DNA of 50,364 nucleotides from a virus (lineage: Duplodnaviria > Heunggongvirae > Uroviricota > Caudoviricetes). A program made the position numbers and the translations under genes. The stretch's first letter is position 1; each line of letters starts with the position of its first letter. Where the stretch lies: positions 1 through 50,364 of IMG/VR virus record IMGVR_UViG_2563366831_000011; one strand, written 5' to 3'. Shown here in pieces: positions 2,410-48,369 of the stretch. The notes below the pieces were generated by a model. That model was not told where the DNA came from. It saw only the letters and a program-made list of their open reading frames with translations, and did no database searches.

Positions 2410-3441
2410 TTACGCGAATTCTTCCACGATCGCCATGCCAGTAGCACCATCACCACCGGTAAATGCCGCACCGGTAAACCCAAGGTCATACGCGCCACCA
2501 CCACCGGATCCGGGAGCTGCGCCAGCAATACCGGCCTGAGAACCCGCCCGGCCACCGCCGCCAAAATACGACGCCCCGCCGTTGCCCGTCAGAAGGCTTG
2601 AGCCTGTCTGTCCATCTGAGCCGGTACCACCGTTGATCCTGATATCTCCGGTCGCCGCCGTACCTCCGGCGCCGCCGGCGGTATTGGACACGCCTGACTT
2701 CACGCCGCCTTTCCCGCCAGGAGCTGAGAACAGGCTGGCAAACGAGGTGGCCCCACCATCTGCACCACTTACTGCGCCAACTCCGCCCTTACCACCCTTG
2801 CCGACAGTAATCGCATAAGAACTGGCAGCAGACAGGTCAACCCATACGATAATGGTCGCGCCCGCGCCGCCGCCAGCACCGGAGAAGGTTTCTGTATTGT
2901 TGTAGGCCTGGCAGCCGCCACCGCCGCCACCGGCACCTGTCAACGTTACTTTTGCATAACGGGCCAGAGGAGATCGCGTATAGGTTCCGTTTGCATAGAA
3001 AGCTTTTGGAGCGCCAAGTGAACGCCCGACAAAACCAGAGGAATCAGATATTCCGAGGTTATAACGGGCTTCATTTACCGCATCCTCACCGGCATCTTTA
3101 ATTTCTGACAGGTTATTGCTGATCTGCAGGAACGATAACAATGATCCGGCTGTCATTAAATTCGCGACAATGTCATTCGTTGACCATACGCGTGCCGTTG
3201 TTCCTTCCTGACCACGAATTACTGTCATCACGTCACCGGATACAGACGTTACGTGCATAATTTCAGAAATTGTTTTCGTGGCCGCGTCGGTTATCGTTAA
3301 TTTGAAATAACTCTGCCCAGATACAGGAGAAGGGAATAAAGCCCCCGCTCCAGTTCCCACGGTAATAACGGTAGCGGACGCACTAATACCCGCAGCGAGA
3401 ACACTCTTTGCGTTATTATTGGCTAATAGCTTCAGCGCCAT
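2410..3441 (-). CDS. Tail fibre protein with glycine-rich C-terminal domain
   Basis: 343 aa; C-terminal half is a Gly-rich repeat domain (GGGGGGCQAY...GGKGGVGAVSGADGG...AYDLGFTG) paralogous to the C-terminus of the 6914..8209 product. Confidence 0.7.
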   Translation of the reverse strand: MALKLLANNNAKSVLAAGISASATVITVGTGAGALFPSPVSGQSYFKLTITDAATKTISEIMHVTSVSGDVMTVIRGQEGTTARVWSTNDIVANLMTAGSLLSFLQISNNLSEIKDAGEDAVNEARYNLGISDSSGFVGRSLGAPKAFYANGTYTRSPLARYAKVTLTGAGGGGGGCQAYNNTETFSGAGGGAGATIIVWVDLSAASSYAITVGKGGKGGVGAVSGADGGATSFASLFSAPGGKGGVKSGVSNTAGGAGGTAATGDIRINGGTGSDGQTGSSLLTGNGGASYFGGGGRAGSQAGIAGAAPGSGGGGAYDLGFTGAAFTGGDGATGMAIVEEFA

Positions 3442-4080: not shown

Positions 4081-4758
4081 TCAGTTGCCGTACTGGTCTC
4101 TATAGTATGATTTTATTTGTGAAATTTCTGATGTTGTCTTCGAAGTTGAAAAGATAAGAACTTCCGCATAGTTAACGTTATTCGCGGCAGTCGCCGCCAG
4201 CGTTAGCGGAGCATTCTGGTAGGTAATAGACGATGCCGCGGCTACGGTTATGGTCGCGTCGTTGACATACACCGTCTCGGTGTCAGTTATCGGGTCGTAG
4301 TTCACGATCACAAGATCAATGCCTGTGGATAAGGTCACCCCTCCCTGCTGGGTTGATGACCCTGTTTTGTAATAGTAGAGCTTGTTATCTGTCTGTGCCT
4401 GTAGCCGCAGATGGGGCCCCGCGATTAAAAAGGTAGCTTGTGTGGTGTTATCTCGCTTGAAAGCGAAGGCGTAGCAATAGCCGTTTTCCGCTGTAGCAGG
4501 GTAGACATTCTCAGATGTGACGCCGCCATTTGCGGTTAGCGCACTTTTCATCGTCTTGATTCCGTTCAGCGTCGACGCTGAGATTGCAGAACCTAATGCA
4601 ATATTCATATCGCCAGCGCGGTCTGCAAGAGTTGATACTCGCCAGTCAAAATAGTGCGAAGGGTTCCACCTGGCTGTTTTATCATCGCGCTCGGTATAGG
4701 TGGACTGAATACCGCTATTAACGGCGTTTGGAACCTGTAAAAAAGTACAAATTGCCAT
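4081..4758 (-). CDS. Hypothetical tail-fibre-associated protein
   Basis: 225 aa; AAGGA SD; directly downstream of the tailspike gene on the same strand; Ser/Thr/Asn-rich, beta-rich appearance. Confidence 0.5.
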   Translation of the reverse strand: MAICTFLQVPNAVNSGIQSTYTERDDKTARWNPSHYFDWRVSTLADRAGDMNIALGSAISASTLNGIKTMKSALTANGGVTSENVYPATAENGYCYAFAFKRDNTTQATFLIAGPHLRLQAQTDNKLYYYKTGSSTQQGGVTLSTGIDLVIVNYDPITDTETVYVNDATITVAAASSITYQNAPLTLAATAANNVNYAEVLIFSTSKTTSEISQIKSYYRDQYGN

Positions 4759-4769
4759 GGGTGTATTCC

Positions 4770-6899
4770 TTATTTTCTTAGGGATTGTACGGCGTAGTTC
4801 AGCAGTACTCGTTTTGCCTGATACGCGCCGATAATTCTGGCACCTCTGGCGTTAGGATGTGGGTCTGCGGGATTTGTTGTCGAATATGCATAGCCGTTCT
4901 GAAATGCAAAATTAGAATTCTTTATGAGGTCTCTTACATTGAATCCCAGCATTTTATAGGTTGACTGGATATTATCAAAAACGCTCTCACGCTTAATGTG
5001 ATTGTCGCTATACCAGCGCTCAAGGAAAATAGGCAATTTAGGAATCGCTGATTGAACACGTTCAACTATTGCACTATATCCGTTGAGAAAATCTGTGTCA
5101 GAAAGAGCATAATCATTTTCCCCAAGATTAATAAACGCGACATCCGGCTGAAAATATTGTATCCAGTATTGCTGATAAGACGCTGTTTGATTCAGGTAAT
5201 ACTGAAATGTTGCACCTCCTCTTGCGTAACGAATGACTCTGACGCCGCCAGCAGAGTTGATGCAATTGAAGCTGATCAGGGCAGGATAGCCTGCCTGACC
5301 AGATGCGGGAGGTTCAATTTCCAGGGCGAATCGACCTGAGTTCGGCCCCAGACCCTCCACCCTAACGATTGTTATCGTTTCGCTACCCTCAGGGTTATTC
5401 GGTATTGTGGCTGTTTGCCATTCCCCTGAACCCGCCGGGCCGGTGGAACCATCGTCATTCCTGTCGGTTGCACGGAACCGGAACTGACTAGATGTTCCGG
5501 CGTCTCCGGTACCAGTAAAACCGACCTCGACAACGTCGTGCTGATAAATGGGGTTGCTGCGGGCCGAATCTTTTACGCGAAAAAACAGGTTAGTTCGTCC
5601 AGCCCACGGTACTAGAGCAAAACTCAATGGTGCACATTTTTTCCCATAGGTCTGGTTATCGACCCAGCCAGTATAAACTAACTCCATATTCAGCAGATCT
5701 CTTGACGCTGTGTTATCGTTTGACGGTGCAAAATAACCGATACCCCCATGCCCAAGATTTGCTGCAAAAAGGCTGTACATAGCGTCAATGGCACCCAATC
5801 CCCCTGTGCCTGCAGTGAGAGAGTCACCCTGACAAAAAATAGTTAGATATCCTCCTGTGTATGCCCTTTCCTGCATCGCGATCATGTAATCAAGAAGACC
5901 AGTCTCTGGCAAGCTTGATGCAGCCTGAGAACCTCCTGACCCCGGCAATAGCAATTGGTCGTCGCTTCCGAGAATAGCGAATGGCGAAGATGAGTAGCCC
6001 TTTAAAATAGAACATCCGGCATCTTCTAAAGAATCAGTAGTTAAAAAAGATGCCATCTGGTTATCGCTTCCCATTACAGATAATGGCTTGCCTGGGATAC
6101 CGTAACCATATTTGATATCTGCCCCAGCATCGCGCATTCTGTCGCTATCATTGCCGTATTCAAGGACCTGATAATCAGTGCCTATGATTACGAATTTTTC
6201 ATCTCCGTATCCACTAAGAAATCTTACCCCTGCAAATATCCACGTTGAGGGCATCTGACGTCCGGTAGGCTGCAGCGTTCCGTCAACGTTTACTACCTCA
6301 ATAGCGAGCGTGTCGTCATTGTCAGTGCGATAATAAGCATTTGACCCAACAGGAATATTTCCAGCGTCTGCATCTGCCTGCGCCGCAGCCAGCGTCGGAA
6401 ACTCGCGGATTGTCCCTGTTATGGCCGCTGTACCCGGCTGCTTTGCCTGCAATACGGCCACGCCTGCTTTGTTTTGATACTGCCATGCAGCAGAAAGCGC
6501 ATCTGGACCTTGGGCTACCCAGAATGACTGCCCTTCAGTCGTTGCGGCCAGCCCGGCAATAGTGCCATCAGGATCGCTTGAGGTTTTATAGAATGTGAAC
6601 TTATTCCGTGCATATTCAGAGGCATCATTCTTGTACTCTTCAGCCTGCGCAGCTGAACCTGCGGCTGCCGTTGCCGATTCGGATGAGGCAGCGGCCGAAG
6701 TAGCAGCACTTTGTTCGGCCGTTTCTGCTGAGTTCTTGGCAGCTTCAGCCGCAGTTGCAGCATTAATCGCTTCCTGAGTGGTGGCGCTAATATCCTGATA
6801 GCCCTGCTGGACCTCGATCAGGTACTGCTTTGCCTCTGCGGCACTCACGGACGCCTCTGCCGCGAACTGTGCCGTTTGCTGTGTGTCGGTAGTCGCCAT
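4770..6899 (-). CDS. Tailspike/tail fibre with C-terminal SGNH (GDSL-like) esterase domain
   Basis: 709 aa from MATTDTQ (AGGAAA SD; tracked ORF extends to a GTG at 6920); Ala-rich N-terminus; SGNH blocks visible: FCQGDSLTAG (block I), FINLGENDYA (block III), PADPHPNARG (block V). Confidence 0.7.
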   Translation of the reverse strand: MATTDTQQTAQFAAEASVSAAEAKQYLIEVQQGYQDISATTQEAINAATAAEAAKNSAETAEQSAATSAAASSESATAAAGSAAQAEEYKNDASEYARNKFTFYKTSSDPDGTIAGLAATTEGQSFWVAQGPDALSAAWQYQNKAGVAVLQAKQPGTAAITGTIREFPTLAAAQADADAGNIPVGSNAYYRTDNDDTLAIEVVNVDGTLQPTGRQMPSTWIFAGVRFLSGYGDEKFVIIGTDYQVLEYGNDSDRMRDAGADIKYGYGIPGKPLSVMGSDNQMASFLTTDSLEDAGCSILKGYSSSPFAILGSDDQLLLPGSGGSQAASSLPETGLLDYMIAMQERAYTGGYLTIFCQGDSLTAGTGGLGAIDAMYSLFAANLGHGGIGYFAPSNDNTASRDLLNMELVYTGWVDNQTYGKKCAPLSFALVPWAGRTNLFFRVKDSARSNPIYQHDVVEVGFTGTGDAGTSSQFRFRATDRNDDGSTGPAGSGEWQTATIPNNPEGSETITIVRVEGLGPNSGRFALEIEPPASGQAGYPALISFNCINSAGGVRVIRYARGGATFQYYLNQTASYQQYWIQYFQPDVAFINLGENDYALSDTDFLNGYSAIVERVQSAIPKLPIFLERWYSDNHIKRESVFDNIQSTYKMLGFNVRDLIKNSNFAFQNGYAYSTTNPADPHPNARGARIIGAYQAKRVLLNYAVQSLRK

Positions 6900-6913: not shown

Positions 6914-8209
6914 TTACCACTCGATATGCACAATGCCATCGGCGCCATCGCCGGACGGGTAAGCTATTCCGCTGAAATCAATATCGTAAGCACCACCACC
7001 GCCAGAGCCTGCTGCTTTCCCTTTCACACCGCCGGTTGCGCCGCTGCGTCCTCCGCCACCCCAGAACGAAGCCCCGCCAGAACCGGTAAGCATGTTGGTC
7101 GCAGCCTGGCCGTCATGACCAGTGCCACCCTGAATGTTGATATCGCCACCTGACGCAACACCGCCATCACCACCGGCGCTGTTCACGATGCTGGCCTTGT
7201 TGGATTTTTTTCCACCGCGGCCGAAGATGATCCCACCCAAAGAAGAGTCACCGCCGTCATTGCCCGATACGGCACCTAAAACCGCTGCACCGCCTTTGCC
7301 GACGACAACGGATAAGGTCGTTCCCGGGACAACGTCCAGCCAGCCTAAAGCTGTACCGCCAGCCCCGCCACCGCCACCGCTATAGGACTCACTTGAGGAG
7401 GACGCCTGACAACCGCTTCCGGATCCGCCTGCACCCGTCACGGTGTAACGAATGCGCGTCACCCCTGCAGGCACGACGAACGAATACGTCCCGTTGACTG
7501 CGTAAGCGATGTTTCCGTGAGGCTTCGAAAGGGAGGTTACGTTGGTTCCATCGGAGTGGATTTGCGTAACCGTTCCTGGCTTGCTGACAACTGTTGCGCC
7601 CGCCGCCCTGGTACTTAACTGAACGTAGTAAGCGCTGCCGGTGCAGTTATTTTCGATGGTCCAGTCTTTCACCCATGGAGGGAGATATAGGATCCGGTTA
7701 CCAGTTAGCGCGCCGGTGAGAATTAGCCGTGGGTTAGCAGCCTGCAGATCGGTGGCGTTAACGTTAGCCGTCGATATTGAAATGCTGGCCGCTCCGCATC
7801 CCCATGAAGGCATCCAGCCAGATGCCGTTGCATCGGTTTTTTCCGGTGCGGTGTTATTGGAGTCAATGGTGTTGAGCCACGACACCGAGTAATCGCTGGA
7901 AGGGATCACCGCACCTTTAGGGTAGCCTGAAATTGCTGTTCTGAAATCTGCGTTAAAGGGGTACCCCATCCCGGCATCCGACCATTGCAGGCGAGTGTAA
8001 AGATCATTAAAAATGCCGTTAAAGTCCTGACCCTTTGGCGGCTTACCGCCGGCAGAAAGTGCGATACGGGTCAGCGGCGGGAAACCGGAATCCATAGCCG
8101 CCAGGCCGTCGGCCAGCGTTTCAGAGGTGGAATTGACCGGGATCGTGTTTTTGTCGCCGCTCGCAGAAAATACAACCGTCAGACGTGACGGTATGGCTGA
8201 ATTATTCAA
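6914..8209 (-). CDS. Tail fibre protein with glycine-rich C-terminal domain
   Basis: 431 aa; C-terminal Gly-rich domain (GGGGGAGGTALGW...GGKGG...AYDIDFSG) paralogous to 2410..3441; follows the baseplate I-like gene. Confidence 0.7.
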   Translation of the reverse strand: MNNSAIPSRLTVVFSASGDKNTIPVNSTSETLADGLAAMDSGFPPLTRIALSAGGKPPKGQDFNGIFNDLYTRLQWSDAGMGYPFNADFRTAISGYPKGAVIPSSDYSVSWLNTIDSNNTAPEKTDATASGWMPSWGCGAASISISTANVNATDLQAANPRLILTGALTGNRILYLPPWVKDWTIENNCTGSAYYVQLSTRAAGATVVSKPGTVTQIHSDGTNVTSLSKPHGNIAYAVNGTYSFVVPAGVTRIRYTVTGAGGSGSGCQASSSSESYSGGGGGAGGTALGWLDVVPGTTLSVVVGKGGAAVLGAVSGNDGGDSSLGGIIFGRGGKKSNKASIVNSAGGDGGVASGGDINIQGGTGHDGQAATNMLTGSGGASFWGGGGRSGATGGVKGKAAGSGGGGAYDIDFSGIAYPSGDGADGIVHIEW

Positions 8210-10442: not shown

Positions 10443-11447
10443 TCAGTAGCGATGCAGTGAAGGCGGCAACTCTTTGTTCTTAAGTCTTACCCATGCGGAA
10501 AGATTCGTTGGTCCGTCTGGCTCATTGATATCAACATCTCGTGTGTGGTTGATTAAAACGTCTCTCGCCATTCCGATAACATACGAAAACTCATGACCGT
10601 AGTCGTAGCATCTTCCGGAATAGTTCGATTGAATTTGTTTTAATGCCGGATACAGTTCGCGGAATAATGCCTGTGATCGGTTAGCATAATCCCACAACCA
10701 TACAAGGCTGTTTGCTTCTTTTGCAGAAAGCTCGTTGGTGCTCTTCTCTTGTTTGCCAATGAACTCACCTTCAAGTGGAACTCGAGCTGCAAGTGACAGT
10801 GCTTCGGTAAACTGCTCCTCACTGATTTCTTTGTACGAACAGCCAAAATGAGATTTCAGTGACGACCACATAGTGATCATCGCCTTCGCCTGTTTTTCTT
10901 TTGGCAGAGACTGACCGCGACTCATGACGAGTTGTTTAATAGCTTCCTGCTGTTCAGTGGTGATTTTACCCGGCAACACCTTTTTAGCTTTGCGCGGGTT
11001 AACCACATGGCCTTTAGTCCAGTACTCGTAGAGCACATCGTCACACTCTTCCTGATACTGGATTACCTTGTCGCGGATTTCAGGGCGGACTTTGTTTGGT
11101 TGAATGCTTGAAAGCCAAGCCGCAAATTTACGAAAGGCAAGACATGTCATTAACTGTTTACCGCCAGCAGAAGGTATTTCGATTTCCGAAATACCTTTGG
11201 CAAACCTCTGTTTTAACTTAACAAATTGAGCAGCCCAAACCATCCCCATACCTTCAACAACAGGCTTCATAGGAACATAAGGCTCATTGTTAATTCCAAC
11301 CAAAAAGAGATTTGTTCCGTGGAATGGAACATTGATTGTGCGATCTGCAATTGCTAAACTAGTCATATCAGTTTTCTCGTGGTTAACTGGTAATTTAGAA
11401 GCCTCAATGGTTGCAGCCATTGAGGCTTCGCTGTTTTTAGCGACCAT
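10443..11447 (-). CDS. ant: Antirepressor (P22 Ant-like)
   Basis: 334 aa from MVAKNSE (GAGGTG SD; tracked ORF starts upstream at 11489); directly downstream of an Arc-like RHH gene and divergent from an Mnt-like gene, as in P22 immI. Confidence 0.55.
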
Positions 11448-11610
11448 TCGCCACCTCTTCCCTAACACCTTTTGCCAGCAAACGAACAATTGCAGAGTTC
11501 AGAGATATACAGTCCATTTCCGCCAGGCGGCGAAGGTCTTCATTCAGCCGTGATGGAAGGCGAAGGTTGAGTTTGATATTTTTGCGCTCAGTGAAAAGTG
11601 TATCTTGCAT
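11437..11610 (-). CDS. arc: Arc-like ribbon-helix-helix repressor
   Basis: 57-aa ORF found by hand (below the ORF-track cutoff): [45 protein letters not shown]; RHH pattern similar to P22 Arc. Confidence 0.55.
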
Positions 11611-11717
11611 TATCTAATCTCCTTTATTTGGTGCCAAAGTGACACCATGAAGGCCATGATGCCACCATTGAAATCGTATGGCAATATGGCACCATGATTT
11701 TTTTTGAGAGATTTGCA
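11611..11717. promoter_or_regulatory. Divergent promoter/operator region between arc-ant and mnt
   Basis: 107-bp intergenic with repeated GGTGCCA/TGGCACC-type motifs; by analogy with P22 Pant/Pmnt. Confidence 0.4.
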
Positions 11718-12038
11718 ATGGCCGAAAAACAAGTAAAAGACTACGACAAGTTCAACCTCCGTTTTCCTGACGGAATGCGAGATGCTATAGCTGAACGAGC
11801 CAAACGAAACGGGCGCTCTATGAACTCAGAGATTGTTCAGATACTGGAAGATGCCTTGAATGCAGAAAATACACTCGGGGAAATAGCAGATAAAATTAAC
11901 AGCGTCTCGGTTCCGCTAAATGTTGATGCGCTAGTTCAACTTCAAGCCCAGGTTATCGCCATGCAAAAAGAAATACAGGAAAAGTTCAGAGAGCAGAACG
12001 AAAAGTTGAGAGAACTGCTAAACAAAAAACCCACCTGA
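11718..12038 (+). CDS. mnt: Mnt-like ribbon-helix-helix repressor
   Basis: 106 aa from MAEKQVKD; FNLRFPDGMRDAIAERAKRNGRSMNSEIVQILEDAL resembles the P22 Mnt N-terminus; coiled-coil C-terminus. Confidence 0.6.
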   Translation: MAEKQVKDYDKFNLRFPDGMRDAIAERAKRNGRSMNSEIVQILEDALNAENTLGEIADKINSVSVPLNVDALVQLQAQVIAMQKEIQEKFREQNEKLRELLNKKPT

Positions 12039-33494: not shown

Positions 33495-33570
33495 TGGTGC
33501 TGTTTAACGGACTTGAACCGCTACCCATTCGCTTACAAGGCGACCGCTCTACCATTGGAGCTAAAACAGC
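33495..33570 (-). tRNA. tRNA-Thr (anticodon UGU), phage-encoded
   Basis: 76 nt; perfect 7-bp acceptor stem, 4-bp D stem, anticodon loop CTTGTAA, T-loop TTCAAGT, discriminator A then CCA (folded by eye). Confidence 0.75.
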
Positions 33571-33575
33571 ATGTT

Positions 33576-33650
33576 TGGCGGGACAGCGTGGACTCGAACC
33601 ACGATAAGAAGGTTAACAGCCTTCCGTAATGACCTTTATACGACTGACCC
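33576..33650 (-). tRNA. tRNA-Asn-like (anticodon GUU), possibly degenerate
   Basis: 75 nt; 5-bp anticodon stem with loop CTGTTAA, T-stem and TTCGAGT loop, terminal CCA; one mismatch each in acceptor and D stems. Confidence 0.45.
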
Positions 33651-40571: not shown

Positions 40572-41288
<717 letters not shown>

Positions 41289-41415: not shown

Positions 41416-42273
41416 ATGAAGAAAGCAGCAATTTTAATTGATGCGGGTTTTTTCATGCAGCGTGTTCATGCTACGCATCGTAAACACTTCGCCGAGCATG
41501 AACTGACTGCGCAATGCATAATGAAAGTAATATGGTCAATGGTTCTTTCCCATCTTAATGGAAAACGTCAATCACAAGAACGTAGGGAACCGCTTGAGCT
41601 TTATAGAATTTACTTCTATGACTGTCCACCACTCGACATTCAAACACGCCTTCCACTTCCTGAGCATGGCAATAAGACGCCTGGTCGCAAGAATTTCAAA
41701 CTCGAAAAATCATATATTCTGAGAACGGAGCTGCATGAAGAGTTAAGAAAAACTCGAAAAACAGCCTTAAGATTAGGGAATCTTGTTGATAATAAGCGAT
41801 GGCAACTAACTACATTCTCCCTTGATGCTCTGATGAAAGGAACGAAAAAATGGGATGAACTGACAAATGATGATTTTTACTATGACATCAAACAAAAACA
41901 AGTTGATATCAAGCTAGGGATGGATATCACGACTTTAGCTTATGAAAAACTTGTTGATGTAATTGTCCTTGTTGCTGGGGACTCAGACTTTGTGCCTGCC
42001 GCCAAACACGCCAGAATTAAAGGTATTGATTTTATTCTTGATCCACTAAGACAGAATGTTACCCCATCACTGTCAGAGCACATTGATGGAGTTCAGTCAT
42101 ACAGCTTGATATCAGGACTTGCCGATGCTTTACATGTTGAGCCAGACCCGGCACCTGACTGGTGGGAAGATCGAAAAAAAGGCAAGCCTAGAGGAAAAAA
42201 CAATAGCGGTAAACGCAGGTATGGAAACACTCAAGCTGAGTCTGCAAAGAAACATCAAAGAAATAAACGATAA
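41416..42273 (+). CDS. NYN/PIN-like putative ribonuclease in the rex slot
   Basis: 285 aa; N-terminal AAILIDAGFF and VIVLVAGDSDFVPAAKHARIKGIDF match NYN-domain acidic motifs; basic Lys/Arg-rich C-terminal tail; same strand as cI, upstream of oL/pL. Confidence 0.55.
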   Translation: MKKAAILIDAGFFMQRVHATHRKHFAEHELTAQCIMKVIWSMVLSHLNGKRQSQERREPLELYRIYFYDCPPLDIQTRLPLPEHGNKTPGRKNFKLEKSYILRTELHEELRKTRKTALRLGNLVDNKRWQLTTFSLDALMKGTKKWDELTNDDFYYDIKQKQVDIKLGMDITTLAYEKLVDVIVLVAGDSDFVPAAKHARIKGIDFILDPLRQNVTPSLSEHIDGVQSYSLISGLADALHVEPDPAPDWWEDRKKGKPRGKNNSGKRRYGNTQAESAKKHQRNKR

Positions 42274-48341: not shown

Positions 48342-48352
48342 ATTGCCTGATT

Positions 48353-48369
48353 TGCAGGTTCGATTCCCT
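48353..48369 (+). other. Fragment matching the argW T-arm (TTGCAGGTTCGATTCC)
   Basis: 16-nt identity to tRNA positions 1054..1069, upstream of the excisionase-like gene; non-overlapping with the attR core. Confidence 0.5.

Follow-up and report, generated by a model that had tools for sequence, protein, structure and literature searches.

A probable receptor-binding tail fibre with a predicted Ape1-type O-acetylesterase domain in a prophage integrated at argW of Escherichia coli

The virus record IMGVR_UViG_2563366831_000011 of IMG/VR (positions 1–50,364, a tailed phage of the class Caudoviricetes; the whole stretch of 50,364 nucleotides is referred to below as the window) raises the question of whether the 709-residue product of a gene at 4770–6899 is, as a first-pass annotation had proposed, a tailspike whose C-terminal SGNH esterase domain deacetylates the O-antigen or capsule of its host. 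The answer developed here is that the gene encodes, with a probability that we put at about three in four, a tail fibre with which a temperate myovirus, inserted at argW of E. coli, would bind its receptor; the C-terminal part of the fibre would be an Ape1-type O-acetylesterase acting on a surface glycan.

The gene occupies the interval given in that annotation, and lies on the minus strand, which had been left unstated; in the list of open reading frames (ORFs) and their translations, it extends from an ATG at 6899–6897 to a stop codon at 4772–4770. An AGGA ribosome-binding site is located 8 nt 5′ of the ATG, and the start comes just past the stop of the preceding tail-fibre gene. The gene is complete, as judged from close homologues, which are likewise 709 residues in length, 93–96% identical, labelled by NCBI as "SGNH/GDSL hydrolase family protein", and found in Klebsiella pneumoniae, K. 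variicola and K. quasipneumoniae, with a few in E. coli. The three motifs on which the annotation relied are all present in the translation, GDSLT at residues 358–362, GENDYA at 593–598 and DPHPN at 679–683, together with a block II Gly–Gly pair at residues 561–562 (RGGAT) that is absent from its motif list. The Ala-rich N-terminus that it described is also real, with an Ala content of 26–38% in residues 1–100 and an Ala/Ser-rich composition.

The presence of an SGNH hydrolase domain in the C-terminal half is borne out by the Pfam models, by the conservation of the catalytic residues and by the predicted fold. The two computational checks put forward in the first-pass annotation, an HMM search and a structure prediction, thus both gave a positive outcome, and the lack of an SGNH fold that would have spoken against it was not observed. 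A search with family hidden Markov models gave a match to Lipase_GDSL (E 2.6e-5, 24.9 bits) exceeding its 23.6-bit cut-off, and a match to Lipase_GDSL_2 (E 2e-7, 32.1 bits) that falls 0.8 bit short of its 32.9-bit cut-off. Among homologues only 20–37% identical to the fibre, Asp359, Ser360, Thr362, Gly561, Gly562, Asn595 and His681 are invariant and Asp679 is kept in at least 90%; because of these scores and the conservation of the catalytic columns at such identities, the GDSL motifs exceed what chance would give. Block I is located ~200 residues N-terminal to block II, so that the SGNH domain is split, and it is for this reason that the Pfam models match residues 549–690 only. A search with residues 221–709 against 1.84 billion cluster representatives returned only 27 clusters (50% identity) at E ≤1e-3, and the subfamily is therefore narrow.

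The fold was predicted with AlphaFold2 (AF2) in two runs. The first, made on residues 221–709 from an alignment of little depth (22 homologues, most of them close), gave a predicted local distance difference test score (pLDDT) of 39.9, with values <50 over residues 221–329, and was discarded; the second, trimmed to residues 330–709 and with the homologues of 20–37% identity added, gave a model with a pLDDT of 85.1 and a predicted template modelling (TM) score (pTM) of 0.87, which has the three-layer α/β/α fold of SGNH hydrolases. The first SGNH part (residues 330–389; 5733–5912, minus strand), delimited by the AF2 model, the profile alignment and the invariant columns, contains block I GDSLT with Ser360 (codon 5820–5822) and a GHGGIGY motif common to Ape1. 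It is followed by ~160 residues (~390–550; 5250–5732, minus strand, with approximate borders), inserted between blocks I and II, which are all β-strand in the model and form a jelly-roll β-sandwich resembling a carbohydrate-binding module (CBM), as is also indicated by its alignment with the second domain of Ape1 and by Foldseek, in which the sandwich gave weak matches to CBM4, 11, 16, 29 and 61 at E ~1e-4. The second SGNH part (residues 551–709; 4773–5249, minus strand; pLDDT ~90), supported by the Pfam match and the invariant columns, comprises block II with Gly561/Gly562 (5214–5219), block III GENDYA with Asn595 (5115–5117) and block V DPHPN with the conserved Asp679 (4863–4865) and His681 (4857–4859), all on the minus strand.

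As modeled, the catalytic domain is Ape1-like and split by the inserted β-sandwich. The top Foldseek matches in the PDB were Ape1 of Campylobacter jejuni (8GKD, 8GLD) and of Neisseria meningitidis (4K3U), at E ~1e-18 and TM scores of 0.67–0.75, with 313–318 residues aligned in total, the second domain included. The family profile likewise found 4K3U (E 6.5e-7) and 8GKD/8GLD (E 7e-7 to 1e-4), and its alignment to 4K3U spans the GDS and the following GxGGIG, block II and block III, Gly561/Gly562 and Asn595 lining up with GINGAQ and GTNE of Ape1; a PDB search with a single sequence gave a marginal CE3 match alone (2VPT, E 0.028). In Ape, a CBM35-like domain is formed by residues 104–221, after Ser80 (PMC6174289), and the likeness to the Ape1 structures (4K3U/4K7J; 8GKD/8GLD) thus extends to a β-sandwich inserted between blocks I and II in both, whereas the sequence identity is only 11–15% and the esterase domain is here fused to a 330-residue phage fibre.

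The setting of the gene is that of a prophage. Positions 1–1100 of the window contain yfdC and the tRNA-Arg(CCT) gene argW (1009–1083) and are 100% identical to E. coli chromosomes, an integrase gene is located at 1209–2405 on the plus strand, and a 16-bp copy of the 3′ part of the argW tRNA is found at 48352–48367, from which it follows that the window is essentially one ~47 kb prophage integrated at argW. The tail is of the contractile type: the structural genes include those for the sheath, for a tape measure protein containing a transglycosylase domain, and for the hub, J and DUF2612 proteins of the baseplate region. The nearest relatives are temperate Klebsiella phages, for example RCIP0114, ST899-OXA48phi17.1 and ST15-VIM1phi2.1, which share 91–95% DNA identity over 55–67% of the first 25 kb, and the phage is a Klebsiella-type temperate myovirus residing in an E. 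coli chromosome. The host flank is that of E. coli, yet the relatives of the phage come almost all from Klebsiella.

On the minus strand, the genes for baseplate J, the DUF2612 protein and a 431-residue Gly-rich fibre precede that for the 709-residue protein, which is followed by a 225-residue ORF. The protein is read as a tail protein because its gene comes after those of baseplate J, the DUF2612 protein and a tail fibre, and because it shares its N-terminal 220 residues with annotated tail fibres. Residues 1–219 match the tail-fibre PHROGs 38670, 31000 and 19652; within this region, residues 1–97 (6609–6899, minus strand) are rich in Ala, Ser and Glu and, from their composition, are presumed to form a helical attachment and shaft segment. 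Comparison of homologues delimits a conserved adaptor module at residues 98–220 (6240–6608, minus strand), ending in ...GTLQPTGRQMPSTW, after which the C-terminal part is exchanged: the N-terminal 220 residues recur at 82–93% identity in proteins with unrelated C-termini (31% coverage), among them other SGNH types, a SASA-type esterase and domains without a Pfam hit, and the DNA mosaic junction falls at nt 590–654 of the gene. The junction motif ...IPVGSNAYYRTDNDDTLAIEVVNVDGTLQPTGRQMPS recurs in distant homologues and in the Klebsiella fibre 164_08, which has been assayed for activity.

In the neck that follows (residues 221–329; 5913–6239, minus strand; pLDDT <50 in the discarded model), a regular expression picked out a hairpin-like motif, hydrophobic-x-hydrophobic-hydrophobic-G-[S/T]-D-x-Q, three times over, at residues 236, 273 and 307, with a spacing of 34–37 residues. 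D-x-x-G hairpin-like motifs resembling those of the neck (residues 236–320) are also carried by distant homologues and by fibre 164_08. The term tailspike held in part: a tail protein is supported by the tail gene context and the N-terminal module common to tail fibres, whereas the β-helix spike gives way to a modular fibre. A β-helix tailspike was considered and rejected, since the 709-residue protein has no β-helix or pectate-lyase Pfam hit up to E 1 and residues 330–709 are modeled as α/β plus β-sandwich; residues 221–329 are too short to hold a right-handed parallel β-helix (pectin-lyase-like) domain.

The build of the catalytic part is widespread among phage tail proteins, since the two-domain model is matched over its full extent by structures predicted in BFVD (TM ~0.63–0.70, E 1e-13 to 1e-17); such tail proteins include the tail fibre of Klebsiella phage Sin4, proteins of Proteus phage Mydo and SFP21A (Gp09, 9LNA), and hydrolases and minor tail proteins of Gordonia, Arthrobacter and Rhodococcus phages, which differ from the fibre studied here in being only 10–19% identical, in their hosts and in their fibre scaffolds. 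Phage G7C is a virulent N4-like podovirus. Its tail fibre gp63.1 (PDB 4QNL) has no detectable sequence similarity to the 709-residue fibre, and the structural match is confined to the SGNH core, without the two-domain Ape1-like arrangement; according to work cited in PMC13123978, gp63.1 deacetylates O-antigen, an activity needed for infection, and it is the precedent for the mode of action predicted below. SGNH fibres, Ape1-like ones included, have already been described in Klebsiella prophages (PMC12115436, Viruses 2025; PMC13123978, PLoS Biol 2026). Among the enzymatic receptor-binding domains of K. pneumoniae prophages, the SGNH type is the one met most often, and two fibres of this type, 164_08-KL2 and 174_38-KL55, hydrolyse p-nitrophenyl acetate (PMC13123978). 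The 709-residue fibre is an ordinary member of the class described in 2025–2026. Its peptides were not found in the supplements of PMC13123978, where they would have marked it as an association-study predictor or as a tested protein, a result of little weight as the sequences searched are truncated. No NCBIfam family covers the fibre or the products of adjacent genes, and the Ape1-type C-terminus occurs in only 2 of 5,426 complete E. coli genomes.

In the predicted mode of action, the N-terminal 220 residues would serve as an exchangeable attachment and shaft module, followed by the repeat-containing neck, and the C-terminal 380 residues would place an Ape1-type O-acetylesterase at the fibre tip. 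We infer that the protein is incorporated into the virion, is catalytically active on a glycan and takes part in infection. The fibre would bind an O-acetylated surface glycan, capsule or O-antigen, with the inserted CBM-like β-sandwich helping to hold it; Ser360, activated by His681 and Asp679, would attack the acetyl ester to form an acetyl-enzyme, with Gly562 and Asn595 stabilizing the oxyanion, and water would then hydrolyse the acetyl-enzyme, so that the polysaccharide is deacetylated and not cut. Deacetylation may let the phage work through the glycan layer, or come free of it, and so approach the surface of the cell. The recognition of an O-acetylated surface polysaccharide, which the first-pass annotation had suggested, is by analogy in line with the findings on related fibres (PMC13123978).

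Several points weigh against this reading. The Klebsiella fibres with demonstrated activity belong to other SGNH subfamilies, 164_08 being SASA-like and 174_38 7C82-like, whereas the present fibre is Ape1-type, and the closest structural relative acts on peptidoglycan, not on capsule or lipopolysaccharide. The geometry of the Ser360/His681/Asp679 triad is predicted from conserved residues, and the spacing of the block V acid and His is D-P-H throughout the family, as against the canonical D-x-x-H, seen for example in N. gonorrhoeae Ape (D366 and H369; PMC6174289); C. jejuni Ape1 aligns with D-V-H where the fibre has D-P-H. A trimeric fibre architecture is assumed, residues 1–329 being without a confident model.

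Three other explanations have to be weighed. The best placed of them, which we consider improbable, holds that the C-terminal part is a lectin-like module for binding only, the SGNH fold and the sandwich recognizing a glycan without any turnover relevant to infection. The inserted CBM-like domain does suggest carbohydrate binding, the esterase activity of the Ape1-type subfamily is itself a prediction, and it is difficult to tell from sequence whether a prophage receptor-binding protein will be active (PMC13123978); however, invariant catalytic and oxyanion residues (at least 90% for Asp679) at 20–37% identity would be unexpected for pure binding, and both SGNH fibres assayed so far were active (PMC13123978). 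Less favoured is the retention of the Ape1 function, namely de-O-acetylation of N-acetylmuramic acid (MurNAc) in peptidoglycan so that the lytic transglycosylase of the phage can cut the wall at DNA injection. The best structural and profile matches are indeed authentic O-acetyl-peptidoglycan esterases, there is a transglycosylase domain in the tape measure protein encoded by the prophage, and O-acetylation blocks such enzymes (PMC6174289). A peptidoglycan substrate is nevertheless unlikely, because the peptidoglycan of E. coli is not O-acetylated (PMC6174289), which also sets the host apart from those of Ape1, because the domain is predicted to form the outermost part of a fibre outside the cell, remote from the periplasm, and because no patA/patB peptidoglycan O-acetylation cluster was found around the gene, which lies instead in a phage tail module; moreover, Ape is relatively promiscuous in its substrates (PMC6174289), and the fold does not fix the substrate. 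The fibre thus appears chemically like Ape1 but is not classed as a peptidoglycan esterase. Least credible of all is the idea that the protein, in place of belonging to the virion, modifies the lysogen's own surface glycan, whether as an O-acetyltransferase of the SGNH type or as a conversion enzyme that is secreted or expressed by the lysogen.

Directly downstream of the fibre gene, a conserved partner ORF of 225 residues (4081–4758, minus strand) is recognized by synteny and homologous ORFs, and is the only unreported feature of the locus, no earlier description having been found. Both E. coli fM51a and Klebsiella phage ST405-OXA48phi1.2 have the partner next after the SGNH fibre, and its homologues also follow SGNH fibre homologues, 24–37% identical to the 709-residue fibre, on two unrelated contigs, one environmental and sipho-like (BLASTP E 3e-19), the other with a P2-like baseplate (hhalign E 8.6e-8); a further contig, which encodes a T7-type terminase domain, has a weaker candidate (E 0.0016). 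The phage backgrounds of these loci differ widely. These partner ORFs are ~225–250 residues long (loci L002, 8079–8783; L003, 2409–3158; L004, 7356–8081), and a fourth locus with an SGNH homologue is without a partner ORF. Searches of Pfam (with the aligned sequences scanned one by one), NCBIfam and the PDB (single sequence and alignment profile) gave no match for the partner. Its C-terminal motif is reminiscent of LamG/ConA-like domains, a likeness that no search supported.

The partner possibly belongs to the same receptor-binding module as the fibre, perhaps serving in its assembly or as a second subunit for binding. A bolder proposal, which we hold to be doubtful, is that an Ape1-type fibre and its downstream partner form an obligate two-gene receptor-binding module, with the partner as distal adhesin or assembly factor, and that the target glycan is perhaps common across genera and not a K-type-specific capsule. 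A cross-genus target is suggested by the near-identity of the catalytic domains found in K. pneumoniae, K. variicola, K. quasipneumoniae and E. coli.

For temperate phages that infect Klebsiella and related bacteria, esterase fibres are coming to light as a main alternative to depolymerases in dealing with capsule and O-antigen, and they bear on host-range prediction, on the design of phage therapy and on the reading of serotype data. The 709-residue copy adds little that is new in this respect; it shows that an esterase fibre of the Klebsiella type can reside in the chromosome of E. coli, and points to an Ape1-type subfamily with a conserved partner gene as a reasonable target for biochemical work.

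Upstream of the 709-residue fibre, the 431-residue tail fibre (6914–8209, minus strand; PHROG 12796, E 1.9e-178) has a Gly-rich C-terminal domain (Pfam Gly_rich_2, E 1.7e-13) and is probably the other receptor-binding protein of the module. Downstream of the partner, the minus-strand order continues with a 99-residue ORF, a UmuD-like ORF and a second Gly-rich fibre-like ORF, after which comes the plus-strand integrase gene. Two Gly_rich_2 (PF21722) fibre-like ORFs are thus present, at 6914–8209 and at 2410–3441, both on the minus strand; the latter, of 343 residues, lies beyond the UmuD-like gene and adjoins the integrase gene, and is possibly a fibre gene that module exchange left behind, as a spare or a remnant. 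Amid the baseplate genes are found an anti-repressor, Ant (10443–11489, minus strand), and a divergent Arc-like regulator (11694–12038, plus strand). The gene of a 285-residue NYN-domain protein (41416–42273, plus strand) adjoins that of a CI-like repressor (40575–41288) and may have an accessory (moron) or a defence function. Finally, tRNA-Thr (TGT) and tRNA-Asn (GTT) genes are carried within the prophage at 33495–33650 on the minus strand.
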